NCBI GenBank assembly: GCA_934718275.1 | Contig: CAKUZD010000002.1 | Span: 217,858-281,857, forward strand | Length of the DNA stretch: 64,000 nucleotides | Direction of reading: 5' to 3' | From: an uncultured Candidatus Melainabacteria bacterium | GTDB taxonomy: Bacteria; Cyanobacteriota; Vampirovibrionia; Gastranaerophilales; Gastranaerophilaceae | In this document: piece after piece, positions 7,258 to 45,403 of the stretch | How the letters are laid out: the number at the start of each line of letters is the position of its first letter | Position numbering within the stretch: the first letter of the stretch is position 1 | Notes under the pieces: generated by a model | Database searches by the model: none | What the model was told of the DNA's origin: nothing | Seen by the model: the letters and a program-made list of their open reading frames with translations, nothing else | Made by a program: the position numbers and the translations under genes

Positions 7258-7361
7258 GAAGTGAAACGTGAAAAGTCCGTTACAGATGCTATCGTATCAA
7301 AATATATTTTTGAACGAAGTGAGCTATAAAGTTTTCTCACTTCTCACGTTTTACTTTTCAC
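7247..7361. repeat. 115-bp palindromic MITE-like element with GTGA(G/A)AA heptad arms, copy 1
   Basis: Left arm gtgaaaagtgagaagtgaaacgtgaaaag (7247-7275). Right arm is its inverted counterpart (~7332-7361). A second copy lies at 16030-16144. Confidence 0.8.
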
Positions 7362-16487: not shown

Positions 16488-16693
16488 TAAAAAACAATAT
16501 GTATTAAGGGAATATGACAATAAGTTTTTGGCACCTTTGGTAAAAGTATTCTTTTATCAAAGGTGTTTTGTTGTCTTAGGTTAAAACTAACTTAACAGCT
16601 TTATAAGAATGTAAACTTTTCTTAATAAATTCAGAAATATATTAAAGAATACTTACAAAATTGACGTTAATCCAATTAAGGAAAAGGGTCATT

Positions 16694-30554: not shown

Positions 30555-32657
30555 TTATTTATTAATTGCAGTTTTGTTACTTAATTTAATTTCTCTTTTT
30601 AAGTCGTCAAGAAATTCTTTTGTATATAAAAAGCCTAAATGTGCACCGTGATTTAATAAAGTTGTTTTTTTGCCTGTGCAAAGTTTTAGTTTTTTGAGCT
30701 GAGATTGATTTGTTAAGTAATCGTCAAGTGAATGATAAATTTTGTAGTTAGAGTTGTTTTGGAAAAAGTCTGTTAAAGATAAAAGACTTGTTTGTTCTTT
30801 AAAATCTTTAATTGAGATATCCATATTGCTTAAAAGGTACTTGTGTACATAATCTTTATAATTCATATTATTTATTTGGTTGTAAAAGTCTGTTTTTTTG
30901 TTTTTAGGAGTGTTTTCAAGCGTAAATATCAGGTCTGAAAGTTTTTGATGCATAATAAAACCTGTGATAAGTTTTCCTTCTTCTTCCGAGAATGGAAGTT
31001 TGTTTATTTTTATATCAGGAGTTTCGTCTTTGATATCGGATAATTGAACAACTTTTGCTGCTGTTTTAGCAACTTTTTGTTTCAAGTTATCGTTATTTTT
31101 CGCCCATTCTTCACCATTTTTGTCAACTTGTTCCATAGCATAAATGAGTTCAATAGGCGGACAAATTGAAATATATTTTGTTATGTTCAAAGTGTTGTTA
31201 TGGTATTCTTGGTCGGCAAGAAATAATGTTGTTAATGCTCCAAAGGATGTTCCTATAATTGTTTTATCTTGAAATTTGCAATTATATTTGTTTTCAAGAT
31301 TGCTTATGATTTTTGATGTTACGTCTTTTATATATTCAACATCTTTTAATGGAAGTCCCGGAGCATAGCCGTTTGGCATGCTTTTTACAAATTCCCACTG
31401 AAAATGACTTCCTTGAATAATTACGGAATAACCTTCATCATAAAAAAGTTTTGCCAAAACAACGGAATGATGAGATTGAATACCTTCTCCTATAGAAGGG
31501 TAGATAATTGCAATTGGAGAACTTTTATCTTTTTGCATAATATATTTGAATTTATATGGAGCTTTGGATGGTGTAATGTTTACGGAAGAAGTATGAAATT
31601 TTTTTGAAAAACTTCTGTTCCAAATAGATAATTCATTCCAAATAGATTTGTCTATATCCGGGTTGTCAAAAAGAGCAGTTCTCATAGAATCAACTACAGG
31701 ATTTTGTGGATTGTAGTCTTCTATAAGAATGTCAGCCATGAGTTTTGAATTTGCTAATTCATAACTTTTTAATATTATATTGTCAATATTAGTTCCCCCT
31801 TTTAAAATGTCTGCAACTGTCAATTTTTCATTGTTTATGTCACTTTCATTTTTTAAATCAGTCATTACAAGTTCCGGATTGATTTCAGGAGGAAGTTCGT
31901 TTTCCGTTGATTTAAAACCCTCTTGTAAAATCTCCTTTCTATCAAGGTTTTCGCATTTGATAAAATTATCAATTCCGTACATTTTTCGAGAAATTTCATA
32001 AGGATCTGCATAAGTTGATTCAATCATTTTTATAAGAGGTTGAAGAAAAGAGGTTCTGTTTACTGTTAATCCTGCTTTTACCATGGCAAGAACAGGGGTG
32101 CCGACATAGGTTGTTGGGTTCAGAGAAGTGTCTAAAATTTTGCCTGCAATTCCTCTGGCTGTTGTTCCATTCATTACCGGAAGAACAATATATGAGCCTG
32201 AACAACATTTACATTTTGTCAAAGCTTGTTCCATATCCTCTGTTGTTGGTTCTATATTGAAAAAATGTTTTGCAGGGTCAAACATCCCGCCAAGGCCTAA
32301 CGTAGTGTTTGTCAAAAATCGAACAGTTTCGGTTCCCGATGATTTAAAATCTTTTTGAATAAGGCTACTTATCAAACGTTTTGGGTATTCAATATTTTTG
32401 TATGCATTATGAATTCTTTCAATTCCGTATTCCGGCATAATTGAACTCCATAATATATGAATTGGGCGAATTGCGTATTTGTTTAGTCCTAAATTGAATG
32501 CAAAAATTTTTCTGTTAATTTTTTCATATTTATCAGGACCAAGATATATATAAGCATAATCAGGATATTTGCTTTGTTGTTTTAAAAGTTCTTCTGCTGT
32601 ACAAATTTCTGTAATGCATAATAAAATTGCTAAAATAATAAATAATTTTTTTATCAT
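30555..32657 (-). CDS. MlaA/VacJ-like domain fused to a C-terminal alpha/beta-hydrolase-like domain
   Basis: Signal peptide. MlaA pattern NRKIFAFNLGLNKYAIRPI...YKNIEYPKRLISSLIQ...VRFLTNTTLGLGGMFDPA. C-terminal half has IIGTSFGALT (GxSxG elbow) and a late NHGAHLGF. Confidence 0.7.
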   Translation of the reverse strand: MIKKLFIILAILLCITEICTAEELLKQQSKYPDYAYIYLGPDKYEKINRKIFAFNLGLNKYAIRPIHILWSSIMPEYGIERIHNAYKNIEYPKRLISSLIQKDFKSSGTETVRFLTNTTLGLGGMFDPAKHFFNIEPTTEDMEQALTKCKCCSGSYIVLPVMNGTTARGIAGKILDTSLNPTTYVGTPVLAMVKAGLTVNRTSFLQPLIKMIESTYADPYEISRKMYGIDNFIKCENLDRKEILQEGFKSTENELPPEINPELVMTDLKNESDINNEKLTVADILKGGTNIDNIILKSYELANSKLMADILIEDYNPQNPVVDSMRTALFDNPDIDKSIWNELSIWNRSFSKKFHTSSVNITPSKAPYKFKYIMQKDKSSPIAIIYPSIGEGIQSHHSVVLAKLFYDEGYSVIIQGSHFQWEFVKSMPNGYAPGLPLKDVEYIKDVTSKIISNLENKYNCKFQDKTIIGTSFGALTTLFLADQEYHNNTLNITKYISICPPIELIYAMEQVDKNGEEWAKNNDNLKQKVAKTAAKVVQLSDIKDETPDIKINKLPFSEEEGKLITGFIMHQKLSDLIFTLENTPKNKKTDFYNQINNMNYKDYVHKYLLSNMDISIKDFKEQTSLLSLTDFFQNNSNYKIYHSLDDYLTNQSQLKKLKLCTGKKTTLLNHGAHLGFLYTKEFLDDLKREIKLSNKTAINK

Positions 32658-33795: not shown

Positions 33796-34530
33796 TTATT
33801 TAAATTTTTCGTTTGGTGAATATTTTTCGTAAGTTAATTTTCCGGTACGCATTGTATTATAAATTTCACCATAACCAATATGTTGGTTTACTTTATTTGG
33901 GGTAACCGTAAAACTATAACAATCATAACCATATTGATTGCGTTTTTTATCTCCATTTATATCAAAAAATATTTCTGCACATTGTTGAGCCTGATATGGT
34001 TTTGGAACAAGTTCTCCATCTTCTTGTTTTATATAGTTCCCATTTTCATCTTTTTCATAAGACATGTACGTCACCATACAATCTCCGGAATAATTTTTTT
34101 GTCCCATATATACAATTGTTCCATCATTCAAAATAGCACGTTCTTTTGAGCCTAGTTTTTCTTGTTGTATATTTCCAAAGCCATCGTTTGTCTTTCTTTT
34201 GGGCAATATAATTTTATCTTTTCCACCGCAACCATTTGAAGTTGAAGAACATCTTTCAACTACGTTCAAATATTTTATAAAACCATCAAGCTGCTCGGCT
34301 GCCGTGTATTTTGGATTGAATTGTTCGGAATAATCGGAAGTCCCAAGTTCGGCTTTTCTCATTTCAATAGCGTTTGCCAATTCTGAATATGTGCGTTTTA
34401 ATTTGTTTACCATAACAACTTCTTCATATTTGCTAATTAAGGCCGGAAGCGTTAGTGCTGCAACAACACCAATTACTCCTAAAGTTATCAAAACCTCTGC
34501 CAATGTAAAAGCTTTTTTGTTTTTAATCAT
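33796..34530 (-). CDS. prepilin-type N-terminal cleavage/methylation domain protein (pilin-like)
   Basis: MIKNKKAFTLAEVLITLGVIGVVAALTLPALI from ATG 34530 (ORF open to 34572). Contains the FFDINGDKKRNQYGYDCYSFTV motif. Confidence 0.85.
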   Translation of the reverse strand: MIKNKKAFTLAEVLITLGVIGVVAALTLPALISKYEEVVMVNKLKRTYSELANAIEMRKAELGTSDYSEQFNPKYTAAEQLDGFIKYLNVVERCSSTSNGCGGKDKIILPKRKTNDGFGNIQQEKLGSKERAILNDGTIVYMGQKNYSGDCMVTYMSYEKDENGNYIKQEDGELVPKPYQAQQCAEIFFDINGDKKRNQYGYDCYSFTVTPNKVNQHIGYGEIYNTMRTGKLTYEKYSPNEKFK

Positions 34531-34577
34531 TTCTATCCTCTTTTTAATCATTAAAATGATTATATTATGCATTATAA

Positions 34578-34615: not shown

Positions 34616-34843
34616 ATGAAATATCCTAAATTAGTTGAATTTGGCAAAAATTTAAGAATTGCGCGCCTTGTAAAGGGTTATTCAATGGAAAAGTTAGCTA
34701 TGGTAGCCAACCTAAACCCAACACATATTGGGAAAATTGAACGAGCAGAAATGGCACCAACACTCCCTACCATTTTAGCTCTTTTGGAAGCATTAGATGT
34801 TGATTTTAATTCTCTCGTTACATATAAAAGAACTATAAACTAA
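34616..34843 (+). CDS. XRE-family helix-turn-helix transcriptional regulator (75 aa)
   Basis: FGKNLRIARLVKGYSMEKLAMVANLNPTHIGKIERAE. Confidence 0.85.
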   Translation: MKYPKLVEFGKNLRIARLVKGYSMEKLAMVANLNPTHIGKIERAEMAPTLPTILALLEALDVDFNSLVTYKRTIN

Positions 34844-35573
34844 AGTTAAAATTTAAAATAATTACTAATTCTTCATTAAAGAAATTGCTTGGGAATGCTT
34901 TAAATGGAGCTGCAGTTTTAATTGCTTCACCTGCGTTATCATCTAACGCCTTAATTTTCGAAGATTTTAAAATTCTGCATTTTTTAACATTTCCATTTCT
35001 ATCAAGGGTCATAGCCATTTGTACCAACAAATCTTTTTGCCCTTTTGCAAGAATGTCAATTTGCTTTCTTGGAGGAACCTTCCAACTCTTAACAACTTTT
35101 TCCTGAACCTCTTTTACATAAGGAGCATAATCAACATATTTGCCATCCGGACTAAAAACAAAAGATTCTGTTCCCGAAACAAAAATCTGAACAGCATGCA
35201 ACTTTCCTGACGGATAGTCATAGATAATTCTTGACTTCATTAGTTCAGGTCGTCTAAAAGAAACAAATTTCAACTCATTTGAATCAATATTATAAATAAG
35301 TTCTGCATTCCCATTTTTTACATAGTGATAAGACTTATTTTGGGTGTCATCATCCTTAACAAGAGTAAAATCATGATAATATTTTGGGTATTTATCAGTT
35401 TTAATCTGAGTTCTAATTTTGCTAAAAATAATAGCAAGTGTCTCATTTACCTGTTCATAACTTTTGCTTTGAGAAGGCTGTAAAAAATCCGGCTCAACCT
35501 TAATATAAGCTCCGGCAAAGGCACTTGATGCCATCAAACACATTGTAATGCAAGATATTAAAAACTTTTTCAT
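34833..35573 (-). CDS. secreted protein with TonB/TolA C-terminal-like domain
   Basis: Signal peptide MKKFLISCITMCLMASSAFA. C-terminus KVVKSWKVPP...MTLDRNGNVKKCRILKSSKIKALDDNAGEAIKTAAPFKAFP fits the TonB_C pattern. Confidence 0.6.
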   Translation of the reverse strand: MKKFLISCITMCLMASSAFAGAYIKVEPDFLQPSQSKSYEQVNETLAIIFSKIRTQIKTDKYPKYYHDFTLVKDDDTQNKSYHYVKNGNAELIYNIDSNELKFVSFRRPELMKSRIIYDYPSGKLHAVQIFVSGTESFVFSPDGKYVDYAPYVKEVQEKVVKSWKVPPRKQIDILAKGQKDLLVQMAMTLDRNGNVKKCRILKSSKIKALDDNAGEAIKTAAPFKAFPSNFFNEELVIILNFNFSL

Positions 35574-35797: not shown

Positions 35798-36301
35798 ATG
35801 AGTATGACATCAATCAGTTCAATCAGCAATACACAAGCTGCTGCTATTTCAAGTTATAAAACGGAAACTGATTTGAGTTCAACAACAAAACTTAAATTAG
35901 AAGCTTTGGGGATAGACCCTTCATCGGTAACATCCGAGGCTCAGGCACAAATACTAATTGCGCAGGCGGAGGCTGCGAAACAACAGAACAACACAGGACA
36001 ACAACAAGGAGGTAATTCATCAGAGCAAGAGCTTTTGACGGAAGCAAAGAATCTTGCAACACGAGTTGGCGTAACAGTATCAAGTAATGATTCGTTAGAC
36101 ACAATTGTTGATAATATTTCCAAAGAAATTCAAATAATGTTGAATTCCGGAGATAAATCAAAGGTGTTAACAGCACAAGGTTTTCAGACGCAACTGGCAA
36201 GTATTTCCGAAAGAGCAGAGGCTATTCAGTCAACACAACAAAATATTTTTAATACAATGAATATGATTTCTGTAAGCAACAAGTATGCCTTGGGTTTATA
36301 G
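35798..36301 (+). CDS. hypothetical S/T/Q-rich protein (167 aa)
   Basis: AAGAGGG RBS, with ATG at 35798 or 35804. No recognisable family. A candidate TTGACA-16-TAATAA promoter lies at 35742-35769. Confidence 0.6.
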   Translation: MSMTSISSISNTQAAAISSYKTETDLSSTTKLKLEALGIDPSSVTSEAQAQILIAQAEAAKQQNNTGQQQGGNSSEQELLTEAKNLATRVGVTVSSNDSLDTIVDNISKEIQIMLNSGDKSKVLTAQGFQTQLASISERAEAIQSTQQNIFNTMNMISVSNKYALGL

Positions 36302-36341: not shown

Positions 36342-36373
36342 AACGGCTTTCAATATATTGAAAGCCGTTTTTG
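36342..36373 (+). terminator. strong rho-independent terminator
   Basis: 12-bp perfect stem aacggctttcaa-tata-ttgaaagccgtt followed by a T run. Confidence 0.85.
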
Positions 36374-36514
36374 TAAATAAATTCGGGCGTTCTGTATATT
36401 AGCGAAGGATATTTTAAGCATTTTCGCGTATATTAAAATAGGCACTATATTATTTACTTATTGTCGGAAATATGGTATATTGTTCTTATAAAATATATCA
36501 AACGGACAGGAAAT

Positions 36515-37189
36515 ATGAAATTAAATAAAAGATTAGTTACGTTAGGTTTAATTATATTGGTGCTATCAATTGCATTAAAATTTATTTGGGCCGGATTAAA
36601 ACAAATTAAGGTAGATGACTTTCATCCTGCTGCAGTTATTTTTTTAATTGATTCTTCTGCTTCAAATCAAAAGCAATTGCCGGAACAGAAAAGGATGTTG
36701 CGTCAAATCTGTAATTTACTTGATCCCGAAGACCAAATAAAGATTTTACGAGTTTCTGAAGATGCATACTTGATATATGAAGGCGGGCCTATGAATGGTA
36801 GTACAATTACAAAATCAATGGATGCATTTACACAATATGATAAAAAAGATTATGGTACTGCTTATGGAGTAGGTATTAAAAAAGCTTTTTCTCATGCTTT
36901 AACGATGAAAAAAGAAGGATATGTGCCTGCTGTGGTAGTAATTGGTGATTTGGAAAATGAGGGTGCTATTGAAAAACAAATTAATTGGGATACGTTACCT
37001 TCAAATGTTCAAAATGTAAAAAAATATGCTCCGGATATTTCTATGATGTTTTTGGATGCACATCCGGCAAAATTAGATTTAGTAAAAGAAAAACTAACCC
37101 CTGTTCTTGGAGAAACTCATTTGATAGTTGCTCCAAAACAAAATATAGATAAATCAATTAGAAAATTTCTTCATGCAATCGGAAGATAG
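36515..37189 (+). CDS. membrane-anchored von Willebrand factor A (vWA) domain protein
   Basis: TM anchor LVTLGLIILVLSIALKFIWAGL. MIDAS-type VIFLIDSSASNQ, later GTAYG and VVVIGDLENEG. Confidence 0.7.
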   Translation: MKLNKRLVTLGLIILVLSIALKFIWAGLKQIKVDDFHPAAVIFLIDSSASNQKQLPEQKRMLRQICNLLDPEDQIKILRVSEDAYLIYEGGPMNGSTITKSMDAFTQYDKKDYGTAYGVGIKKAFSHALTMKKEGYVPAVVVIGDLENEGAIEKQINWDTLPSNVQNVKKYAPDISMMFLDAHPAKLDLVKEKLTPVLGETHLIVAPKQNIDKSIRKFLHAIGR

Positions 37190-37207
37190 AATTTGAGAGG
37201 ATAACTA

Positions 37208-38821
37208 ATGACTATTGTAATAGTAACATCACAAGGCGAAAAGGTTTTTAATAAGGGAATAATTACAGTTGGAACAAATCCAAATTGCGATGTAATATTG
37301 AACACAGGTTATGATGTATTGTTGACGCTGGAATATAGGGTGGCAGAAAACAAGTGTTCTATTATCAATACTTTTAAAAATGATAAAGTGCTTTTTAAGG
37401 GGCAACCGATAAAAAAAGTTGATGTATCTAATGTCTGTAAGATTATGTTCAAGGAGTCCGATGAGTTTATGGCAATAAAATTAATTGCCGATACTTCAGT
37501 ACATCAGTCTAAAACAATCACTTCTATCGGAAAAGAGGATTTGACTGAAGAAGATATAAGAGGATTGTACGGCAAGGATGTTAATGCTGTTACTAAAGTT
37601 AAATTGGAAAAGCAAAAAGAAGATTTAGAAGATGCGCGTGTTGCGATTATCAAGCAAGTCGCGTTTCATATAAATGATTTGAAACAAAAACTTTCAACTA
37701 ACTCAAAAACAAGTATTTTCTTACATATTGCTATGTTTTTCAGTTCAATGATTTGTGCTTTTGGGGTTTCAAATTATTTAATGGGCTTGGAAATTAAAGA
37801 GTCCGCTAATTTTCTTCATTTACCTACAAATATTAAGGTTTGGGGAATTTATACGGTGTTAATTTATGGGATTTGTTTGCTTTTAAAACAGGGAATTTAT
37901 TTGTATTTACAAAGTAATATCCAAAAAGATATGTCTAAATCAGCAAAGCTTGGACAAGGTTTCATGTTGATTTTTTCATTAATTTTTGTACTTGGAATAT
38001 ATGTGGTAAACCTTGTTTATTATATGAATTTGAATGATTTTATGACATTTGCAATTTTTATTTCTTTCTTTTTCGCCGGGATTATGGCTGTTCTTGCAAT
38101 CTCTTGCGGATATTTCAAATGTAATGGTACAGAATGGGCTATAACTCTTGATAAATATGAATATAGAGAAGATTTTGAGAGTGTAATAAAATCATATAGA
38201 CAATGGATTGAAAGATATATAAACAGTTTAAGTAATTCAAAAATACAAGGAATTAAAGATAAGATATTCAATTTGCAACTTAAATCATTCGGAGAAACAG
38301 TGGTAGGTCTTATTACTGCTCCATTTCTAGCTTATGGTGTGTCAAATACTTTGGCTATGTGTTTTCCGGAAGCTGCAGGTTGGATTAGGATTTCCGGTTT
38401 AAGAATAAGCCCTGTGTTTTTGACTCTTGCAACATTTATGATTATATTTGCGTTCTTTTCTTTTGTTAACGCATTTTTCTGTACTAAAAAAGTTCAAGGT
38501 TCACAAGTAATTAAACAGGATGGTTTCTCGGATTACCAACATCACGGTGTAACTATTTATGGACTTGAAGGTGTAAGAAGATTAAACTCCGAAAAAAATC
38601 GCTCTATGACAATAGGTTGCGCAATTATATTTATTGAATTTGCGATGAACGTTTCATATTTTATGACTGAAATCGGTGGTGATATGCAAGGTATTTTCTT
38701 GAGTTTAGTTGCTGCGTTAGTTCCAACAGCTTTATTGATTGCAGAAACTTTGATGTTAAGCCAAACTAAATTTGATATTTATGCGTGTGATGAATTACTT
38801 TCAAAAGTAGATAAAGATTAG
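37208..38821 (+). CDS. polytopic membrane protein with N-terminal FHA-like domain
   Basis: ITVGTNPNCDVIL...FKNDKVLFKGQPI resembles the FHA core (weak match). About 8-10 hydrophobic helices follow. GAGAGGA RBS. Confidence 0.6.
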   Translation: MTIVIVTSQGEKVFNKGIITVGTNPNCDVILNTGYDVLLTLEYRVAENKCSIINTFKNDKVLFKGQPIKKVDVSNVCKIMFKESDEFMAIKLIADTSVHQSKTITSIGKEDLTEEDIRGLYGKDVNAVTKVKLEKQKEDLEDARVAIIKQVAFHINDLKQKLSTNSKTSIFLHIAMFFSSMICAFGVSNYLMGLEIKESANFLHLPTNIKVWGIYTVLIYGICLLLKQGIYLYLQSNIQKDMSKSAKLGQGFMLIFSLIFVLGIYVVNLVYYMNLNDFMTFAIFISFFFAGIMAVLAISCGYFKCNGTEWAITLDKYEYREDFESVIKSYRQWIERYINSLSNSKIQGIKDKIFNLQLKSFGETVVGLITAPFLAYGVSNTLAMCFPEAAGWIRISGLRISPVFLTLATFMIIFAFFSFVNAFFCTKKVQGSQVIKQDGFSDYQHHGVTIYGLEGVRRLNSEKNRSMTIGCAIIFIEFAMNVSYFMTEIGGDMQGIFLSLVAALVPTALLIAETLMLSQTKFDIYACDELLSKVDKD

Positions 38822-38823
38822 TT

Positions 38824-39720
38824 ATGGATATTCTGAAAGTTCTTGTAATAATTGCATTTGTTTTCGTTACAATTTGTACGATAAAAATACATCCTTCAAT
38901 ACATCAACCAATGTTGATTGAGGATGCAGATTTTAAATTGACCAGAATTAGTGATACACTTACTCCGGAAAGTGTCACTACAACTATATCTACAACTTCT
39001 GAAGCCCCTAAAAACAGACAATTGGAGCAGCAAACTCGGGAGACTCAACAACAAGTGGTTGAATTTAAAGATAATTTAACGACATCTAATGAAGTCGGAC
39101 AAAGCCAAACAAAATACATACAATCCCAAAATGTTGAACCACAAAGGGCAAGGATTAAAAATATAACACCAAAGCAATCCAGACAACAACAAATTGTGAA
39201 TAATCCTCAAGTTGATGATATGGATGATTTTGAGATGGTGCAGCAAATTTTAAAAAATGTACAGGAAGAAACAAAAACGTTTCCTGTGCCAAAAAGTTCT
39301 CAAACAGTTCAAACAAGTAGCCAAAAATCGCAAACAAACAATTACAGAAATCCGTACATGACAGAGCAGGAAGAAATTATTGCTTGGAATAGGTGGAGGA
39401 GTAATATTCAAAATCAAATTATGAAAGATTCTGACATTGAATATGCTCCACTTGGAACTCTTTTCTTGTTTACTTTTGTTGCTGACAAGTATGGAAATAT
39501 TTCAAATATTAAGGTTGAATGTTCAAATCCGAATTATATGAATGTAGCAAGAAATAATGTAAAACCTGCAATTGCAAGATTGCAAAAAAAGCCTATTCTT
39601 AACTTCCCGCGTGGAACTCAAAGAAGTTCAACAGTAGTTACGGGGGCATTTTTAATTGGTACACAAGAAAGGTTTTCGTCTCCGAATGATTATTCGGACT
39701 ATGAAAGGGTGAAATACTAA
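38824..39720 (+). CDS. membrane-anchored T/Q-rich protein with TonB_C-like C-terminal domain
   Basis: N-terminal TM VLVIIAFVFVTICTI. C-terminus WRSNIQNQI...LFLFTFVADKYGNISNIKVECSNPNYMNVARNNVKPAI. Confidence 0.55.
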   Translation: MDILKVLVIIAFVFVTICTIKIHPSIHQPMLIEDADFKLTRISDTLTPESVTTTISTTSEAPKNRQLEQQTRETQQQVVEFKDNLTTSNEVGQSQTKYIQSQNVEPQRARIKNITPKQSRQQQIVNNPQVDDMDDFEMVQQILKNVQEETKTFPVPKSSQTVQTSSQKSQTNNYRNPYMTEQEEIIAWNRWRSNIQNQIMKDSDIEYAPLGTLFLFTFVADKYGNISNIKVECSNPNYMNVARNNVKPAIARLQKKPILNFPRGTQRSSTVVTGAFLIGTQERFSSPNDYSDYERVKY

Positions 39721-39860
39721 TGAAAACACAAAAAATAATAATAATTACTTTGATTTTATTGGTAATTTTGGGAATTTGTACCTGTATCGTTGTGAGCATA
39801 AAACCTAATATGCACAAAACAGTTCAGCTTGAACAAATTATTTATAAAAGGAGTAAATAA
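39720..39860 (+). CDS. 46-aa single-TM micro-protein
   Basis: Own translation MKTQKIIIITLILLVILGICTCIVVSIKPNMHKTVQLEQIIYKRSK. The ATG overlaps the upstream TAA (TAATG). Confidence 0.45.
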   Translation: MKTQKIIIITLILLVILGICTCIVVSIKPNMHKTVQLEQIIYKRSK

Positions 39861-40036
39861 TGTTAAAAATATTATGTGTGGTAATATTAATTATTTTGGA
39901 ATTACCTTTCTTGTTCAAACTCAGACAAGCTCAATATGATATAATCAGGCAAACTGCAATTATTCTCATTATGGGAGTAGTAATCCCACTGATTGTTTAT
40001 GCAATATATTTGTTATGTTTGTTTATGCTAAAATAA
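39860..40036 (+). CDS. 58-aa two-TM micro-protein
   Basis: Own translation MLKILCVVILIILELPFLFKLRQAQYDIIRQTAIILIMGVVIPLIVYAIYLLCLFMLK. TAATG overlap with the previous ORF. Confidence 0.45.
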   Translation: MLKILCVVILIILELPFLFKLRQAQYDIIRQTAIILIMGVVIPLIVYAIYLLCLFMLK

Positions 40037-40043
40037 ACTTGTT

Positions 40044-40973
40044 ATGTATATATGTAGAGAATGCAAAACAAAATATAAAGAAAGAGTTGAGTATTGCGAT
40101 TGCGGAAACAATACGTTTGATTATGTTGAAGAAAAACAACCTGTTATTTCTCAGGAGAAAGCTAAAAAATCTTTAACACTTGAGCAAAAAGCAGAATTAA
40201 TTTCTTGGGTATTTTTTGTAATTTGTATGATTTTGTCCGTAATTGTTTGGGCTATTCCCGTTAAGACATCTCATACGACAAAACAACAGCCAAAAGTTCA
40301 ACAAAATGTTGATATAAAATCTATTCCTGATATAAACAGAATTTGGAATGATACTCCTCTTTATACTCAAAGACAAACGGGTCAAGAACAGCAAGTTCAA
40401 CGGAGCCCGTTAGACGAGTTGAGACAAGATGTTCCATTAACATCTGCACCAATTAATAACCAAAGGATTTCTCAATCTGAGGTTCAAAAAAAAAATAATG
40501 ATTTAATCAAAAAAAATATAGCTTCTAATAAAGTTCAACAATCGCAAGTAAAGCCAAAAACTGTTCAAAATAAAGCAAAAACAACAGTGACTTCTTCACA
40601 GCCACAAACTACAAAACCAAAAGTTCAACAACAAGTGCAGAAAGAAGTTCAAAAAGTAACAGCATATAATTCAAATAGTGCAGAAATGTTGCGTTATAAA
40701 AATCGTTTGCGTGCTGCATTATTTAGACATTTTGCAGTCGGAAGTATCTCCGGTTCCGGTGAATGTTCTGTACAATTTGCGGTGAATGAAAATGGAAAAT
40801 TAATAAATAGAAAATTTTTCAAAGAATCTTCAAACAAAGCTTTAAATGATGCAGTTTATTATATGTTGATGAGTGTTCCTCAATTTGAAGTTCCTCCAAC
40901 GGAATATAATGGGCAAACAATTCGGATGAATTTCAAAATTGATAATGGCAACTATGAAATTTCGATTTATTGA
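40044..40973 (+). CDS. zinc-ribbon / TM / Q-K-rich linker / TonB_C-like domain protein
   Basis: MYICRECKTKYKERVEYCDCGN (CxxC...CxC), TM WVFFVICMILSVIVWAI. C-terminus YKNRLRAALFRHF...VQFAVNENGKLINRKFFKESSNKALNDAV. Confidence 0.6.
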   Translation: MYICRECKTKYKERVEYCDCGNNTFDYVEEKQPVISQEKAKKSLTLEQKAELISWVFFVICMILSVIVWAIPVKTSHTTKQQPKVQQNVDIKSIPDINRIWNDTPLYTQRQTGQEQQVQRSPLDELRQDVPLTSAPINNQRISQSEVQKKNNDLIKKNIASNKVQQSQVKPKTVQNKAKTTVTSSQPQTTKPKVQQQVQKEVQKVTAYNSNSAEMLRYKNRLRAALFRHFAVGSISGSGECSVQFAVNENGKLINRKFFKESSNKALNDAVYYMLMSVPQFEVPPTEYNGQTIRMNFKIDNGNYEISIY

Positions 40974-41014
40974 TAATTATAAATAGACCGGATTTTTCAA
41001 TTACAGAATGTATT

Positions 41015-41208
41015 ATACTCTCGTCCGTTGAGGGAGAGATAGAATTTGTTAGCAAATGAATGCGAGCTTACAAATTCAAGAGAGGGGGGATTGCAAAATA
41101 ACAAAAGGAAAAGGTTGTTAAAAATCAATGGGCTTGTTGTGTTCGCGTTCTCAATATAACTATAACATCTTATTACCCTATTGCCTTATAGCCTTATAGT
41201 CTTAAAAC
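41015..41208. repeat. repeat mosaic (R4): purine-flanked hairpin module plus CTTATTGCC-type 9-mer units
   Basis: 41019-41091 ...cgttgagggagaga-[gaatttgttagc...gcttacaaattc]-agagagggggg, and 41168-41208 cttattaccctattgccttatagccttatag. Confidence 0.75.
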
Positions 41209-41230
41209 GATATTTTAACAGCCTGTTGAA

Positions 41231-42052
41231 TTAATATCCGTTTGCATTTAAAGGTTGATTTAATCTAACTTGTATTGTTGTGCCATCAGGAATTTGAACT
41301 TCTTCTCCTCGTTGCATAGAGCCTCTTAGGCCTCCTCCGGCAGCTCCTAAGCTCCCAAAAATGAGCATGTTTTTACCCCAATCATCAGTTCCGCCGCCCA
41401 ACGCTGTTAGAGCTGCACCTACAAGCATACTTCCGAGAGCTCCAACGACAACATCTCGAGTCATTTTTTTTGCACGTTCGTTTTGTGCTTTGAGGTAAAT
41501 TTTTTCCGTAGAAATATTTATAGTAGCTCCTTTCGGAGTCAAAATTTCATTAAATGTAATTTCAATCATCCCACTACCGTAGGCTAAACCGGCATTTTTG
41601 GCATCAGTAGCAGTTCCGTATACAAGACTTCCTGCAGGGGCTATAAGCTTGCCATTGTACCTAAAATCATTTGTTAATCTAACGGTTAGTCTATCGTTTT
41701 TCTCCAAACTTCCGGAACTTATCCCTGAATCGAAAGTTACATTGAAAGTTGTTCCTGTCGGAATTTTTACGATATATCCTGTTAAAGTTTGATGTGACGG
41801 AGGAGTGAATGCATTTGTTTGTTCTTCTTCGTTGATTATTGGTTGAGGGGTAAGCTCTTTTATTGTATTGTTTTTTATTTCTGTTTTATTTCTTTTTTTT
41901 GTAAAATCTATCGGTTGCGAATTTATATTTCGGTATTTATTTCTATCAAATTCAGCCTGTGCCTCATCAGAAAAATCGTATTCGGCAAATACAGGTAAAG
42001 AAAGTATTTGAAAACATATTAATAAACTCAAAATCTTTTTCATTAAGTACAT
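41231..42052 (-). CDS. secreted protein with VirB10/TrbI-like beta core and C-terminal glycine-zipper segment
   Basis: Signal peptide MKKILSLLICFQILSLPVFA. IPTGTTFNVTFDSGISSG...LIAPAGSLVYGTA...ILTPKGATINI pattern. VVGALGSMLVGAALTALGGG. Confidence 0.55.
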   Translation of the reverse strand: MYLMKKILSLLICFQILSLPVFAEYDFSDEAQAEFDRNKYRNINSQPIDFTKKRNKTEIKNNTIKELTPQPIINEEEQTNAFTPPSHQTLTGYIVKIPTGTTFNVTFDSGISSGSLEKNDRLTVRLTNDFRYNGKLIAPAGSLVYGTATDAKNAGLAYGSGMIEITFNEILTPKGATINISTEKIYLKAQNERAKKMTRDVVVGALGSMLVGAALTALGGGTDDWGKNMLIFGSLGAAGGGLRGSMQRGEEVQIPDGTTIQVRLNQPLNANGY

Positions 42053-43078: not shown

Positions 43079-45403
43079 ATGATAGTAGGAAGATATACAT
43101 ACAATGGAGTAAAGCAACGACATAAGACAAACGGAGAACTATCTCCAAATCGAGTACCTCTATCTTCCGAGTTCTTGTCTTCAAAAAATTCAATAAATGA
43201 GAGACCTTTAAAAAGTAATCTAAATGATTTATCTTTTAAAGGTCTTTCTTTTAATGGGGTAAATTCAAACCAACAACAAAATCCAAAACCTAAAAAAGAT
43301 GATAAGATGAAGCCGCTTTTATATACTGTTGGTGCTCTGTTGGCAACAGGTTTAGCTCTTAGGTTTGCACCAAGATATAAAGATGCCGGTCAATATAGTA
43401 TTAAAGAGTTTTCTCAATTCTCTCAAAAATATATGGGAATTACTAAAGATAAACTTGGGAAAACAACTCAAACTTCTATCGGAGAAGAATTATTAGAACA
43501 TGTTAAAAATTCTAAATTAACCGATAATATGATTAAAATTGACGGGGACAAGATTTCTTTCCGTAAAAAGACTATTCCTCAGCTTATTTGGGATGGCTTA
43601 ATTTATCCCGTCAAAGTTTTGCCTGCTGATATCTTAAATGGGACAGTTGAGTTAATCGGAAAAATTAAACCATTTAAAGGTTGGGCTCAAGAAACATTAC
43701 AGAAACCGTTATTCAAGAATATAAGACAACGTTCTAAAGTTGATGCTCAAATGAATTCTCTCAGAGGTCTATTTGAAACTATGGAAAAAGTCAAAAATTT
43801 ACCTGATAATGAGAAGTCAGCTGAAATGTTCCAACGTTCAATAAAAATGTTTGACCCTAAAACAGGTAATTATGATACAAAACATGAACGTTCTTTAAAC
43901 AGACTTGTTTCCGGTTTGCCTCCGGCAATTTTCTTAGCAAATGATGCATATAACTTGTCTCGAATGATGGATGATGATAAAAATTCTGCAAGTCATGAAC
44001 AAAAAGTCAGATTTAAACAGGAAATGGCAAGAATTGGATTTAATGCATATATTACACTGGTTACTTTAGGTGCATTAAACAAATATATTAATAATTCAAA
44101 GATGGGCATTATGTTGATGACAGCATTAACTACCCTTACTACAGAAGCATTTTCCCGTGTTATAAATGGAAAACATATTACAAGGTTAACTCCGGAAGAA
44201 GCTAGAAAAGAAAACGCTAAAAATCATGCTCCGGAAGCAAATATAAAACCTGAAGTTTCTTTTAAGGCAACTGAAAATAAAAAAGACGATAAAGAAAAAG
44301 CTCAAAAACCGTTATTATCTTTAAGTACCGTTGGCAAAGCAGTAGGTGCAATTATTGTTGGCGGTTTCGCCATAAAAGGTGCAAGAAAAATTGATGCTGT
44401 TGATAATGCTTGGAAATCATTTGCAGGATTTTTCAAAAATCACTATAATAAATTAACTCAAGTTGATGATTATAAAATCTCAAAAGATAAATTTGATAAC
44501 ATAACTAAAGTTCTTGAAGAAAATGGATTTACTTCATTGGCAGAAAAATATAAAAAAGTTGCTAAAACTGCAACAAATGCCGATGGGTCAATTAGCTTGG
44601 GTAAAAAAGATAAAAAAGTTAAACCTTTAGTAAATTTCGTAATTGCTCCATTTAAGTTTATTTGGAAATATGGTTCAATGCCATATAAATTTGTGGATGA
44701 CGCCATAAGTACAGTATTCAAAAAAGGTACAAAAGCTTCAAAGAAAGCCACTCCGGAAATTTCAGCATTAGCAAAAAGTGTAGACAATATCGGAAATATG
44801 GCTGAAAAATATTCTAAAGGTAAAATTGATAAGAAACAATTCCACGATTATGTAACAGACAATATTTTGAAAGCGTTTAATGTTGATACTATGTCAAACG
44901 TTTCAAACAGCGAGCTTTCTAACTTAGCAAAAACTGCTGCACTTGCTGCTACTATTTGGTTCTTGATGACAGATAATTATAATATGGTAATGTTAAAATC
45001 AAATGGTAATGATGTTGAAGGTGCTAAGACCAAATTTAAAGAAAGATTTGTTCAAGAAGGATCAAGGTTGTTCTATCAAACATTATTAATTGATTTATTT
45101 AATAGTACATTTAGTAAACAATATCACCAATCTTTATTCGGAATGAGTTGGATAACTTTAACAAATACAACAATAGGTGAATGGTTGACAAGAAAATCTG
45201 TAGGTGTTCCTGTTGGAACTCATTCAAGAGAGCAATTGCTTGCGATAGAGGAAAAACAAGATAAAGCTACCGGTTTTACAAGGAAATATTATGACTTTAT
45301 GAAGCGTTTAACCGGAAAACGTTCAATTAAAACTTATGAAGTTGCTCAAAAAACACAAGATTTAAAAACAAAAACTTCCGGTCAGTTGACAACAAAAGCG
45401 TAA
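43079..45403 (+). CDS. large hypothetical membrane-associated protein (774 aa)
   Basis: Long ORF with hydrophobic segments (LLYTVGALLATGLALRF, GFNAYITLVTLGAL, AVGAIIVGGFAI, AALAATIWFLM). No recognisable family. Confidence 0.65.
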   Translation: MIVGRYTYNGVKQRHKTNGELSPNRVPLSSEFLSSKNSINERPLKSNLNDLSFKGLSFNGVNSNQQQNPKPKKDDKMKPLLYTVGALLATGLALRFAPRYKDAGQYSIKEFSQFSQKYMGITKDKLGKTTQTSIGEELLEHVKNSKLTDNMIKIDGDKISFRKKTIPQLIWDGLIYPVKVLPADILNGTVELIGKIKPFKGWAQETLQKPLFKNIRQRSKVDAQMNSLRGLFETMEKVKNLPDNEKSAEMFQRSIKMFDPKTGNYDTKHERSLNRLVSGLPPAIFLANDAYNLSRMMDDDKNSASHEQKVRFKQEMARIGFNAYITLVTLGALNKYINNSKMGIMLMTALTTLTTEAFSRVINGKHITRLTPEEARKENAKNHAPEANIKPEVSFKATENKKDDKEKAQKPLLSLSTVGKAVGAIIVGGFAIKGARKIDAVDNAWKSFAGFFKNHYNKLTQVDDYKISKDKFDNITKVLEENGFTSLAEKYKKVAKTATNADGSISLGKKDKKVKPLVNFVIAPFKFIWKYGSMPYKFVDDAISTVFKKGTKASKKATPEISALAKSVDNIGNMAEKYSKGKIDKKQFHDYVTDNILKAFNVDTMSNVSNSELSNLAKTAALAATIWFLMTDNYNMVMLKSNGNDVEGAKTKFKERFVQEGSRLFYQTLLIDLFNSTFSKQYHQSLFGMSWITLTNTTIGEWLTRKSVGVPVGTHSREQLLAIEEKQDKATGFTRKYYDFMKRLTGKRSIKTYEVAQKTQDLKTKTSGQLTTKA

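Follow-up and report, generated by a model that had tools for sequence, protein, structure and literature searches.

A conserved vWA, FHA-like and TonB-like membrane operon of the Gastranaerophilales and its possible role in trans-envelope coupling

What do six closely packed genes for membrane proteins, each annotated as "hypothetical" in the databases, do together? The question is raised by a cassette (O1–O6) in a 64,000-nucleotide stretch of DNA (here called the window) from the Gastranaerophilales, an order of gut Melainabacteria, in which an initial annotation had seen a "trans-envelope complex of unknown function". Here, we describe the organization and conservation of the cassette and the predicted properties of its products, and weigh the readings that have been considered for it.

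Organization and conservation of the operon

All six genes are encoded on the + strand (O1, 36515-37189; O2, 37208-38821; O3, 38824-39720; O4, 39720-39860; O5, 39860-40036; O6, 40044-40973), with intergenic spacing that ranges from a 1-nt overlap to an 18-nt gap. The latter separates O1 from O2 and contains the sequence GAGAGGA; O2 and O3 lie 2 nt apart, the O3/O4 and O4/O5 junctions are TAATG overlaps, and 7 nt separate O5 from O6. The coordinates and all five junctions are exactly those claimed initially, and the proposed co-conservation and translational coupling of the reading frames were borne out by gene-neighbourhood comparison and by the junctions themselves. Comparison of family N-termini places the start of O1 at ATG 36515 rather than at TTG 36461.

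A palindromic hairpin with a 12-bp stem (AACGGCTTTCAA TATA TTGAAAGCCGTT, 36342..36369), which had been proposed as an upstream terminator and was recovered by a terminator scan and by reading of the sequence, lies between a 167-aa upstream gene and O1; it probably terminates the former and sets the 5' edge of the operon. A promoter-like site on the + strand (TTTACT-17 nt-TATATT with an extended -10 TG, 36453..36481) is situated 34 nt from the O1 start codon, although it is a consensus match only, and such sites are no more numerous across the region than in shuffled sequence, which makes it weak evidence for a promoter. At the other end, the "repeat mosaic" that was thought to insulate the cassette is absent, as a search for direct repeats in 40900-41300 found none. 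The GC content of the cassette equals that of its surroundings.

The operon occurs in about 460 species of Gastranaerophilales, with O2 encoded by 464 species representatives, and was not found outside this order; it is chromosomally fixed and confined to the Gastranaerophilales. In approximately 80 named species the order O1-O2-O3-(O4)-(O5)-O6 is identical, and the cassette flips as one block relative to its flanks. The genes are real and conserved. The earlier view of the six genes as a single evolutionary unit nevertheless requires revision: clades in which O2 is only 40-51% identical keep O1-O2-O3 alone, amid unrelated flanks, and O4, O5 and O6 are lost stepwise toward the more distant clades, O5 being missing where O2 is ≤75% identical. 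The conserved core is therefore a triad, O1-O2-O3, and the remaining genes are clade-specific accessories. No other genes of the cassette are as well conserved as O1 and O2, which always stand side by side; mean column identity is 73% for O2, compared to 39% for O3 and 38% for O6.

The core proteins and their accessories

O1 (36515..37189, +; 224 aa) comprises a single N-terminal transmembrane (TM) anchor and a compact vWA domain, as initially described. Both VWA_2 (28.9 bits, cut-off 27) and VWA (27.2 bits, cut-off 23.8) are matched in Pfam, and the MIDAS motif DxSxS...T...D is complete (D46-x-S48-x-S50, T115, D145) and invariant in 124 distinct sequences. The side of the membrane on which the domain resides is ambiguous from sequence: the charges flanking the anchor follow a signal-anchor pattern, which would put the vWA domain outside, in 73 of the 124 sequences, whereas in 43, especially those of the divergent clade, they favour N-out/C-in (N<C). 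The vWA domain may consequently be cytoplasmic, as the vWA-FHA contact proposed in the initial annotation requires.

O2 (37208..38821, +; 537 aa), the core protein, matched no Pfam or NCBIfam family and is an 8-TM protein of a new, previously undescribed family, whose members share 58-91% identity within the main clade, falling to 28-50% for the most distant relatives. In an AlphaFold2 (AF2) model of moderate global confidence (pTM 0.48), residues 1-93 (37208..37486, +) form a cytoplasmic beta-sandwich (pLDDT about 75-86) with the FHA fold. A Foldseek search of the PDB matched this head to approximately 25 solved FHA domains, including those of GarA and OdhI, with probability 1.0 and TM-scores of 0.65-0.75, the best match being Rv1747 FHA-1. 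The FHA-like head suggested previously is thus present in the predicted structure but invisible to sequence profiles. It is also degenerate, in that G22 is always followed by T or S at position 23, never by the canonical Arg, and neither a conserved Ser/His later in the head nor SxxH is found in any family member; the phosphothreonine-binding residues are therefore lacking, and the proposed role of "phosphopeptide reader" does not hold.

Between the head and the first long helix lies a linker (residues 102-122, 37511..37573, +; pLDDT 51-63) that carries a short linear motif, K-T...E-D-F-T113-E114-x-D116...L-Y121-G122, composed of invariant and at least 90% conserved columns. It resembles the TxxD FHA-ligand motif, and we infer that it may serve as a ligand. 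The body that follows (residues 169-518, 37712..38761, +) is polytopic, as claimed; its helices number eight, where 8-10 had been estimated, and AF2 secondary structure and clear positive-inside statistics support an N-in/C-in topology. Residues 303-360 form a cytoplasmic helical insert of 58 aa, and residues 386-401 a conserved periplasmic hairpin, FPEAAGWIRISGLR. Polar or charged residues within the TM helices (H173, N189, K227, N268, S379-N380-T381, E477, N481, P506-T507 and E513) are invariant, and such intramembrane residues stay so even in homologs of 28% identity. Far more of the conserved surface is cytoplasmic than periplasmic, and the periplasmic loops are tiny. No fold match to the body was found in the PDB, the MFS, ABC and MATE hits of Foldseek being meaningless (rmsd > 20 Å, probability < 0.25); neither internal duplication or pseudo-symmetry nor similarity to Pfam MotA_ExbB was detected.

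O3 (38824..39720, +; 298 aa) consists of an N-terminal TM anchor with a juxtamembrane motif, (K/H)PxMH(K/Q)..(I/L)E, a linker of about 150 aa that is T/Q-rich and disordered (pLDDT < 50 for residues 63-133) and, at the C-terminus, a domain of alpha-beta-beta-alpha-beta order (residues 181-278, nt 39364-39657; pLDDT 84-93 in AF2). The top Foldseek match of this domain is the H. pylori TonB-CTD (probability 0.99, TM 0.52), and FusB and the C-terminal domains of E. coli TonB and TolA were also retrieved, all as weak matches (E-values about 1e-2, TM about 0.5). Alignment with the O6 family by hhalign gave E = 4.4e-4, in register, but Pfam TonB matched 0 of 30 O3 family members. The TonB_C-like assignment made initially is therefore supported as a predicted TonB/TolA-like fold, at fold level only, with sequence profiles remaining silent.

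The accessory genes include two micro-proteins. O4 (39720..39860, +; 46 aa), found in 71 of 76 loci and preceded by the SD-like sequence GAAAGGGTGA, consists of one TM helix followed by KPxMHKT..LE.IIFKRSK; this anchor module is cassette-specific, occurring solely at the O3 and O4 positions, and in two loci (L003 and L004) a 158-aa O3 paralog occupies the O4 position. Rather than the anonymous peptide of the initial annotation, O4 is a stand-alone copy, or truncated paralog, of the O3 anchor module. O5 (39860..40036, +; 58 aa) is a two-TM hairpin with an invariant E-x-P (membrane-embedded Glu) in TM1 and the motif R-Q-T-A-I..IIM, and is preceded by an AAAGGAG SD motif. It was called in 50 of the 53 loci with O2 at least 75% identical (two of the three misses still carry a 2-TM ORF there) and in none of the 23 with O2 60-75% identical, and is thus a main-clade-specific accessory. 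Both micro-ORFs are genuine and under purifying selection (dN/dS about 0.24 versus 0.84-1.58 off-frame; 0.23 versus 0.85-1.23 for O4 and 0.25 versus 0.84-1.58 for O5).

O6 (40044..40973, +; 309 aa) conforms to its earlier description, with a cytoplasmic N-terminal zinc ribbon (nt 40044-40118), whose four cysteines (C4, C7, C18, C20) are invariant in the family, and a single TM helix. The linker that follows is Q/K-rich, spans about 140 aa and includes an A10 tract (40486-40495); it leads to a TonB_2 domain (residues 218-297, nt 40695-40934) at 27.8 bits, above the Pfam cut-off of 22. TonB_2 is recognised in 28 of 28 members of the family and TonB_C in 25 of 28. Across species, O3 ranges from 230 to 317 aa and O6 from 205 to 340 aa, and nine related species have O6 divided between two ORFs.

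Genomic neighbourhood

The product of the convergent gene noted downstream (41231..42052, -) is secreted and 273 aa long; it combines a partial beta domain of the TrbI/VirB10 type with a hydrophobic glycine-zipper segment at the C-terminus. Its Pfam TrbI score of 24 bits is below the cut-off of 35, and a match at E ≤ 0.01 was obtained for 16 of 17 members of the family. The gene is convergent here, where the cassette is inverted relative to it, but most relatives have it immediately before O1 in the same orientation, and it is thus usually a seventh, co-directional member. On the other side, a 246-aa protein with a signal peptide and a C-terminal TonB_C domain (34833..35573, -; 38.2 bits, cut-off 24.6) is encoded; most relatives have its gene a short way past O6 and encoded on the other strand, with the 167-aa gene (35798-36301 in the window) next in line. 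The region is one of housekeeping and envelope genes (MlaA, MlaD, PlsY, VKOR-DsbA, FtsY): MlaA and MlaD are in the window, and the main clade has PlsY as a conserved neighbour, although the PlsY/Mla neighbourhood is lost in divergent clades.

As the initial annotation stated, no ATPase, kinase, phosphatase or ExbB/ExbD is encoded in the cassette, nor was one found in the 64-kb window; there is likewise no TolQ/TolR-like motor in the window and no conserved ATPase or PP2C nearby. A search of 2.7 Mb of related loci found no Hanks-kinase-like ORF, PADLOC gave no hits, and no integrase or transposase lies nearby. The co-conserved genes and this neighbourhood uphold the view that the cassette belongs neither to the vWA-MoxR or vWA/FHA/STK/PP2C systems nor to Ton/Tol.

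Possible functions of the encoded complex

Cytoplasmic vWA/FHA pairs are known from archaeal ArnA/ArnB and from bacterial vWA-STK-FHA-PP2C operons, and the cassette could be their membrane-tethered, phosphorylation-independent descendant, in which a cytoplasmic O1 vWA domain would bind the O2 head or its acidic TExD motif through the MIDAS, O2 would act as the sensor of an envelope or membrane signal, and periplasmic information would come from O3 and O6. Known cytoplasmic modules repeatedly pair vWA with FHA (PMC6509490; bioRxiv 10.64898/2026.01.23.701218), and the constant adjacency of O1 and O2, the N<C anchors of many O1 sequences, especially in the divergent clade, the cytoplasmic bias of the O2 surface and the TxxD-like motif in its disordered linker all agree with such signalling. 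We regard it as unlikely, however, given the lack of a kinase or phosphatase in the window and of Hanks-kinase-like ORFs in related loci, an FHA head that lacks the phosphothreonine-binding Arg and Ser, the majority of O1 anchors with signal-anchor charges, and the lack of an output domain (DNA-binding, cyclase, kinase); the TonB/TolA-like arm of the invariant core would also be left unexplained. O2 might alternatively act on an envelope component, be it a lipid, a glycan precursor or a metal, as its secondary transporter or flippase, with O1, O3 and O6 passing the substrate across the periplasm. Its head and disordered linker would then control clustering or activity in a manner likened to Rv1747, an FHA-regulated ABC exporter and the source of the best match to the head. 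Many invariant intramembrane polar or charged residues are typical of transport proteins, a secondary carrier needs no ATPase, and the surroundings contain lipid and envelope genes; yet O2 resembles no Pfam or NCBIfam transporter family or solved transporter fold, lacks the pseudo-symmetry or duplication present in most carriers, has tiny periplasmic loops and loses its PlsY and Mla neighbours in divergent clades, so that transport is an equally doubtful explanation.

An analogy with the Agl-Glt focal-adhesion machine of Myxococcus, which would make the cassette a surface-adhesion or gliding apparatus, appears considerably less probable. That machine has two TonB-like proteins in the inner membrane, GltG and GltJ, of which GltJ carries a Zn ribbon at its N-terminus, together with the vWA adhesin CglB (PMC11135422; bioRxiv 10.1101/2020.07.22.216333); GltG, GltJ and CglB are paralleled by O3, O6 and O1, respectively. 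The likeness is architectural, homology not being detectable, and the window contains no AglRQS/TolQR-type motor, GYF domain, MglA/MglB or Glt outer-membrane components; moreover, O6 is outside the conserved core, and O1, which is TM-anchored without a lipobox and has a tether of only about 10 residues, cannot reach the cell surface. The split O6 genes, which might indicate decay, and the uniformly "hypothetical" annotations could suggest that there is no functional unit at all, only unrelated or decaying ORFs that are adjacent by chance, or else an island of the mobile or defence kind. This idea is effectively refuted by the conservation data, i.e., the gene order kept in some 80 species, the breadth of O2, the strong purifying selection on the micro-ORFs and the invariant MIDAS and Zn-ribbon residues; matching GC content, a housekeeping chromosomal context without integrase or transposase, and the absence of PADLOC hits also speak against it.

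The initial proposal of a trans-envelope complex is partly supported and is the most economical reading: we assign a probability of roughly 0.4 to a coupling complex that, from domain content and predicted models, would act like Tol/Ton/Glt while belonging to none of them. The operon would encode an inner-membrane-anchored envelope complex with O2 as its membrane hub, on which the bitopic partners would dock via their TM and juxtamembrane modules. O2 would probably conduct or bind something (ions or a small substrate) rather than act as a passive scaffold, because its helices are lined with invariant K227, E477, N481, E513 and S-N-T 379-381. The long-linker arms of O3 and O6 would extend to peptidoglycan or outer-membrane partners, for which the candidates come from adjacent genes, namely the secreted TonB_C protein and the glycine-zipper protein of the TrbI/VirB10 type; these are guesses from a neighbourhood that is itself not conserved in divergent clades. 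Cytoplasmic control or oligomerisation could come from the Zn ribbon of O6 and from the FHA head together with the conserved TExD motif of its linker. Together, the components may form a coupling between inner membrane and outer envelope that serves, for instance, outer-membrane tethering or integrity, or the transmission of energy or force; since the window holds no ExbB/ExbD/TolQ/TolR-like motor and O2 is unlike MotA_ExbB or any PDB fold, an energising role for O2 is one that we purely infer.

Long disordered linkers of variable length are typical of the periplasm-spanning proteins TonB and TolA, and O3 and O6 share this feature. O6 further resembles Myxococcus GltJ, which is likewise bitopic, TonB-like and equipped with a Zn ribbon, and which works in a trans-envelope machine (PMC11135422). 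Compared to Tol-Pal, Ton and Agl-Glt, the operon is proposed to achieve a similar coupling through a different inner-membrane partner.

Operon structure, gene order and distribution

The cassette occupies positions 36515–40973 of the window and consists of six plus-strand open reading frames (ORFs), namely O1 (36515–37189, 224 aa), O2 (37208–38821, 537 aa), O3 (38824–39720, 298 aa), the micro-ORFs O4 (39720–39860, 46 aa) and O5 (39860–40036, 58 aa), and O6 (40044–40973, 309 aa). ORF calling returned exactly the boundaries proposed in the initial annotation, and the tight spacing described there was likewise confirmed: an 18-nt gap with GAGAGGA precedes O2, a 2-nt gap precedes O3, TAATG stop/start overlaps join O3 to O4 and O4 to O5, and 7 nt separate O5 from O6. 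Shine-Dalgarno-like motifs lie ahead of O4 and O5, each within the preceding ORF. As for the elements thought to insulate the unit, the upstream 12-bp hairpin is real (36342–36369). The downstream "repeat mosaic" did not hold up, a repeat search having given no direct repeats, just short AT-rich inverted repeats, and the downstream "convergent gene" proved from synteny in relatives to be a habitual neighbour of the cassette.

When the window proteins were mapped by tblastn on 84 related loci and ORFs were then called, O1-O2-O3 was followed by a 43–49-aa ORF with one transmembrane (TM) segment, corresponding to O4, in 71 of 76 loci, and next by a 53–67-aa two-TM ORF, corresponding to O5, in 50 of the 53 loci where O2 identity is 75% or more (an artefact of the ORF filter accounts for two of the remaining three); O5 occurred in none of the 23 loci with O2 60–75% identical. 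O6 is then present in nearly all of these loci, and in two of the related loci (L003 and L004) a 158-aa O3 paralog occupies the O4 position. Starting a further scan from the most divergent O2 relatives brought up clades whose O2 is only 40–51% identical to that of the window; here, O1-O2-O3 alone stay together, and the flanks are unrelated between loci. Thus, the evolutionary core is the triad, with O4, O5, and O6 as stepwise accessories, and the six-gene order predicted at the outset is conserved in the main clade but reduces to O1-O2-O3 in the divergent ones.

In most of the main clade, O1 is immediately preceded, on its own strand, by a gene weakly similar to TrbI, from which plsY diverges, and a secreted TonB_C protein and a 167-aa protein are encoded just downstream of O6. 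In this window, O1–O6 is inverted as a block relative to both pairs: the TrbI-like gene lies at 41231–42052 on the minus strand, versus 6341–7276 (+) in locus L001 and 6097–7266 (+) in L003, and loci L005 and L019 have the window's arrangement on the TrbI-like/plsY side. This inversion of the cassette as a unit relative to its flanks supports O1 to O6 as an operon. The TrbI-like protein itself scores 24.1 bits against a cut-off of 35, over profile positions 2–82 of 188 only; in its family, 16 of 17 members match TrbI at E ≤ 0.01 (best 1.7e-6), and no match was found among PDB sequences. On the other flank, the secreted protein (34833–35573, minus strand) has a clear TonB_C domain (38 bits) and lacks a membrane anchor; a soluble or outer-membrane-associated TonB_C protein is unusual. 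The adjoining 167-aa Q/S-rich protein (35798–36301, plus strand) belongs to no family, and the two travel with the cassette in most main-clade genomes.

Relatives of O2 number 1,238 in a collection of 5.8 billion proteins; the named ones are labelled "Candidatus Gastranaerophilales", "Melainabacteria" or mis-binned "Clostridium sp. CAG", and none has an annotation beyond hypothetical protein. Scanning one genome per GTDB species, we found 464 stretches that encode an O2 relative, the best 80 of which are all from Gastranaerophilales or Melainabacteria, the complete MEL.A1 chromosome (CP017245.1) among them, in which the cassette is locus L006. When 1.84 billion representatives clustered at 50% identity were searched exhaustively with an HMM, 141 matches only were obtained, mostly fragments of the same family, and the few named distant members again belong to Gastranaerophilaceae. 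The taxonomy of these matches indicates that the family is lineage-restricted and near-universal within that lineage. No description of this gene cluster, nor of Ton/Tol components in Melainabacteria, was found in the literature searched. Some distant relatives (P0127, P0130, and P0142; 410–431 aa) begin, as called, at about position 132–139 of O2 and lack its FHA head; they may be true head-less variants or truncated gene calls. A 2155-aa protein with nine matches to that head (P0253) is an Ig-repeat protein, and its match was treated as spurious.

The window is ordinary bacterial chromosome, with a GC content of ~32% throughout, and encodes FtsY, CoaBC, MutL, NAD kinase, PlsY, MlaA, MlaD, VKOR-DsbA, a GAF-GGDEF-HD-GYP protein, several prepilin-like genes and one tRNA-Gln. 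PADLOC defence-system models gave no match to the nine proteins of the cassette and its flanks. Four big ORFs lack any Pfam match, at 16661–21133 (+, 1490 aa), 8143–9675 (+, 510 aa), 21198–22745 (−, 515 aa), and 43079–45403 (+, 774 aa), the last of which adjoins plsY and the TrbI-like gene in most related loci at 41–86% identity. Genes with a prepilin-type N-methylation motif (~210–260 aa) lie at 33796–34572 (−), 10283–11011 (+), and possibly 29081–29722 (+); the shifting places at which paralogs of this type turn up in many related loci suggest that the pilin-like family of these genomes is large. A 371-aa ORF (1582–2697, −) joins DUF559 (restriction-endonuclease-like) to a zinc carboxypeptidase M14 domain, an odd fusion. 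An MlaA-domain lipoprotein (30555–32657, −) is 700 aa long, with the MlaA profile covering residues 42–227 only; the typical length of MlaA is ~250 aa, far below this.

Domain architecture of the encoded membrane proteins

Conservation is highest in O2, whose mean column identity is 73% (versus 39% for O3 and 38% for O6) and which matches no Pfam or NCBIfam model. In its AF2 model (33 homologs, pLDDT 78.6, pTM 0.48), residues 1–93 form a nine-strand beta-sandwich that Foldseek aligned to ~25 solved FHA domains at probability 1.0 (TM-score 0.65–0.75, rmsd 2.3–2.9 Å), the top match being Rv1747 FHA-1, with GarA, OdhI, Ki67, EmbR, and others also present. The FHA-like head suggested by the initial annotation therefore stands as a fold but not by profile search: the head profile found no FHA among PDB sequences, and 22 O2 heads searched against Pfam gave no FHA (PF00498) and, in two cases, a weak match to Yop-YscD_cpl (E = 0.02). 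The PF00498 consensus for phosphothreonine binding comprises G-R, S-x-x-H, and N-G loops. In an alignment to it made by inspection, without structural superposition, G22 of O2 is invariant and is always followed by T or S instead of Arg; the family has no conserved S-x-x-H, and the following strand-loop consensus, GFDxLLTxQY, contains no conserved Ser or His. On this residue pattern, the head is an FHA fold that probably does not read phosphothreonine, as in YscD and EssC.

The linker between head and membrane carries a conserved motif at residues 102–122 (37511–37573), K102-T103...E110-D-F-T113-E114-x-D116...L120-Y121-G122, and is otherwise disordered (pLDDT ~50–60). Its TExD sequence looks like the pTxxD ligand of FHA domains, despite a head that lacks phosphothreonine-binding residues; any binding to the head (in cis or in trans) or to the MIDAS site is speculative. 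The body beyond it has eight TM helices in an N-in/C-in arrangement with clear positive-inside support (K+R per residue of 0.14–0.24 in predicted cytoplasmic segments versus 0.01–0.12 in periplasmic loops). It also contains a helical insert of 58 residues on the cytoplasmic side and, on the periplasmic side, a hairpin that is strongly conserved, FPEAAGWIRISGLR. Invariant polar or charged residues in the helices are H173, N189, K227, N268, S379-N380-T381, E477, N481, P506-T507, and E513, and many of these are kept in homologs just 28% identical. No internal duplication was detected with hhalign. Full-length Foldseek gave no credible PDB match for the body, its matches to transporters having rmsd values above 20 Å.

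For O1, the von Willebrand factor A (vWA) call was borne out by VWA_2 (PF13519; 28.9 bits versus a cut-off of 27) and VWA (PF00092; 27.2 versus 23.8), and precomputed data list the same matches for its relatives. More tellingly than such near-cut-off scores, the MIDAS motif DxSxS...T...D is complete, with D46, S48, S50, T115, and D145 invariant in 124 distinct sequences from both clades. Since the first beta-strand follows the TM segment after only ~10 residues, the vWA domain sits on the membrane surface.

O3 and O6 both resemble TonB-type arms. In O3, residues 181–278 form an alpha-beta-beta-alpha-beta domain (AF2, pLDDT 84–93) whose best PDB matches in Foldseek are the C-terminal domains of TonB, FusB, and TolA, the top one being that of TonB (probability 0.99, TM-score 0.52, E ~1e-2). 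None of 30 family members matches the Pfam TonB models; the family profile aligns in register with the O6 domain (hhalign E = 4.4e-4, probability 34%). A TonB/TolA-like fold is assigned to this domain with moderate confidence, so that the TonB_C-like domain expected here is kept at the level of fold but was not recovered by profile searches with Pfam, NCBIfam, and PDB sequences; like the FHA fold of O2, it was revealed only by structure prediction and Foldseek. The corresponding assignment in O6 is secure (TonB_2, 27.8 bits versus a cut-off of 22), with TonB_2 matched by 28 of 28 family members and TonB_C by 25 of 28, and the zinc ribbon predicted at its N-terminus is likewise upheld by invariant C4, C7, C18, and C20. 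The linkers of both arms are disordered, compositionally biased, and ~140–150 residues long, with lengths that differ between species. For the orientation of O3 and O6, which the positive-inside rule does not fix, the known location of the domain types served as the guide, Cys4 zinc sites being cytoplasmic and domains of the TonB type periplasmic. In E. coli TonB and TolA, an SxxxH motif in the N-terminal TM helix couples to ExbB/ExbD. This motif is missing from the O3 and O4 anchors, where a post-TM (K/H)PxMH(K/Q) motif stands in its place, and from the TM segment of O6, whose conserved residues are S54 and C61.

The micro-protein O4 keeps its C-terminal motif (KPxMHKT..LE.IIFKRSK) while its TM segment drifts, and O5 keeps E-x-P in TM1 together with RQTAI..IIM. 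Pairwise comparisons gave dN/dS values of 0.23 (O4, 528 pairs) and 0.25 (O5, 419 pairs), versus 0.84–1.58 for the same DNA in the other two frames; judged by these ratios, both micro-ORFs are genes. A TM segment followed by (K/H)PxMH(K/Q) and an acidic strand is common to O4 and the O3 N-terminus, and this anchor module was found only at the O3 and O4 positions in the window and 12 loci scanned. From its sequence, O4 is best described as a stand-alone copy of the O3 anchor.

The O6 linker also contains an A10 tract (40486–40495), within a window that strongly avoids A/T runs of at least 9 (six overlapping matches at four places versus 38.6 expected). In loci from four related species (L012, L013, L020, and L023), the O6 frame is broken right at the homologous tract, and in five other species (L015, L021, L022, L024, and L033) it is split at a second conserved site (..TATGCCAGGC..), where the second ORF starts with MPGK. 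These breaks could be assembly errors, gene decay, phase variation or programmed slippage.

A putative trans-envelope complex and its rivals

The evidence points to membrane proteins that function together. We give a probability of about 40% to a putative trans-envelope coupling complex, a form of the trans-envelope complex proposed in the initial annotation; its layout is like that of the Tol, Ton, and Agl-Glt systems, although the cassette could be assigned to none of them. O2 would form a polar-lined membrane hub on which O1, O3, O4, O5, and O6 would dock through TM and juxtamembrane modules, the O3 and O6 arms would reach cell-wall or outer-membrane partners, and the FHA head and zinc ribbon would supply cytoplasmic control.

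If the vWA domain is cytoplasmic, the cassette could instead be a membrane-tethered vWA-FHA signalling module, one of two serious rivals, each of them rather unlikely. The membrane side matters, since a periplasmic vWA domain cannot touch the cytoplasmic FHA head; K+R counts flanking the O1 anchor average 2.54 on the N side versus 2.42 on the C side in 124 sequences (N>C in 73, N<C in 43), so that the positive-inside rule fixes no orientation. As in vWA/FHA/STK/PP2C modules, a MIDAS vWA gene adjoins an FHA-fold gene, and a zinc ribbon is also present in the system; archaeal ArnA, of ArnA-ArnB, combines a zinc finger with an FHA domain. Unlike those modules, ArnA-ArnB, and TerY-P-type triads, the operon encodes no kinase or phosphatase, and neither the window nor 2.7 Mb of related loci supplies one: AAA+/MoxR, Ser/Thr kinase, PP2C, and secretin genes were absent among the window ORFs scanned, no Hanks-kinase motif occurred in the ORFs of 164 related loci (2.7 Mb), only 13 of these 164 have a Walker-A ORF within 5 kb of O2, and no kinase or P-loop partner is conserved across them. 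The cassette also differs in that O1 and O2 are membrane-anchored and the FHA domain lacks phosphothreonine-binding residues and is fused to an 8-TM body; with no ATPase among its genes, it is not a vWA-MoxR pair either. An FHA-regulated transporter with periplasmic adaptors, for which Rv1747, the FHA-regulated ABC exporter of Mycobacterium tuberculosis, is a precedent, is the other serious rival and likewise rather unlikely. Both proteins are polytopic and combine a cytoplasmic N-terminal FHA domain with a disordered linker containing a conserved Thr, whereas O2 has no ABC ATPase, one FHA domain versus two, a degenerate phosphothreonine site, and an unrelated membrane domain.

Less likely than the signalling and transporter rivals, and quite improbable in itself, is an analogue of gliding or adhesion machinery. 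GltJ of the Myxococcus xanthus Agl-Glt system has a cytoplasmic N-terminal 4-Cys zinc ribbon, a single TM segment, a periplasmic linker, and a TonB_C-like domain (PMC11135422). O6 shows the same layout of zinc ribbon, TM segment, linker, and TonB-type domain, and the cassette also encodes a second TonB-like bitopic protein (O3, cf. GltG) and a MIDAS vWA protein (O1, cf. the adhesin CglB). In contrast to GltJ, O6 has no GYF domain and a cytoplasmic region of ~45 residues versus 377; no AglRQS motor or MglA/MglB is encoded nearby; O1 is TM-anchored at the inner membrane, unlike CglB, an outer-membrane lipoprotein; no sequence homology is detectable beyond generic domains; and O6 is an accessory outside the core. 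Chance adjacency is excluded in practice; the operon is robust, lineage-wide, and structurally unusual, and conserved operons of unknown function occur in many lineages.

A bolder and improbable idea is that O2, possibly with the micro-proteins, replaces 5:2 motors in the inner membrane and, as a new kind of device, energises TonB/TolA-like arms or transmits force to them. In this scenario, a phospho-independent FHA head would gate, from the cytoplasm, an ion-conducting O2 whose eight TM helices embed an invariant Glu/Asn/Lys/Thr-Pro network and which is unrelated to the 5:2 motors of ExbB/TolQ/MotA. To our knowledge, all TonB/TolA/GltJ-type arms studied so far are powered by a 5:2 motor of the ExbBD/TolQR/AglRQS type. 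The lineage-wide operon studied here codes for two arms of this kind together with another type of polytopic protein, and no motor was seen in the 64-kb window; the arms either borrow a motor from elsewhere or have a new partner. If the energiser idea is true, outer-membrane coupling in Gastranaerophilales relies on machinery without a homolog elsewhere; if the cassette is a routine envelope tether, its value lies mainly in annotation, which would gain three or four families and a correction of the operon structure. The domains themselves are known; the undescribed elements are the way in which they are combined, the membrane family of O2, the anchor module, and the pair of micro-proteins. The operon defines O2 as a new family of ~1,200 database members with no Pfam model and a membrane body without a PDB fold, as well as two conserved micro-proteins in a widespread uncultured group of the human and animal gut. 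These bacteria form the non-photosynthetic sister group of Cyanobacteria, and next to nothing of their envelope biology has been described. The MIDAS site, zinc ribbon, TExD linker motif, KPxMHK anchor module, and intramembrane Glu residues offer testable handles.

Comparison with secretion and Ton/Tol-Pal systems

A degenerate FHA-like head at the N-terminus of a membrane protein is also found in YscD/PrgH/EscD of the type III secretion (T3SS) inner ring and in EssC of type VII secretion (T7SS). YscD has one TM segment and periplasmic ring-building domains, whereas O2 has eight TM segments and lacks these domains, and the FtsK-type ATPase domains of EssC are absent from O2. Unlike T3SS and T7SS loci, the cassette has no secretion-system genes nearby save the weak TrbI/VirB10-like neighbour.

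SjdR (cyanobacterial "TonB1"), considered as a possible relative, has no TonB_C domain and was rejected. The absence of an ATPase, kinase/phosphatase, ExbB/ExbD, and secretin from the cassette, as first described, is correct for the cassette and the window ORFs scanned. Unlike Ton and Tol-Pal loci, neither the operon nor the scanned ORFs of the 64-kb window encode ExbB (MotA_ExbB), ExbD, TolQ or TolR, and no window ORF resembles ExbB or ExbD in size and TM profile. TonB-dependent receptor, TolB, and Pal/OmpA-like genes are absent among the window ORFs scanned, and of the Tol-Pal set only TolA-like C-terminal folds are present. The linkers are T/Q/K-rich versus Pro-rich, O6 bears a cytoplasmic zinc ribbon that TonB lacks, and the place of the polytopic partner is taken by O2, an FHA-headed 8-TM protein unrelated to theirs. 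The cassette shares with Ton and Tol-Pal a design of bitopic inner-membrane proteins whose periplasmic linker is long, flexible, and of low complexity and whose C-terminal domain is of the TonB/TolA type (alpha-beta-beta-alpha-beta); they are encoded beside polytopic and small membrane proteins that are potential membrane partners of the arms.
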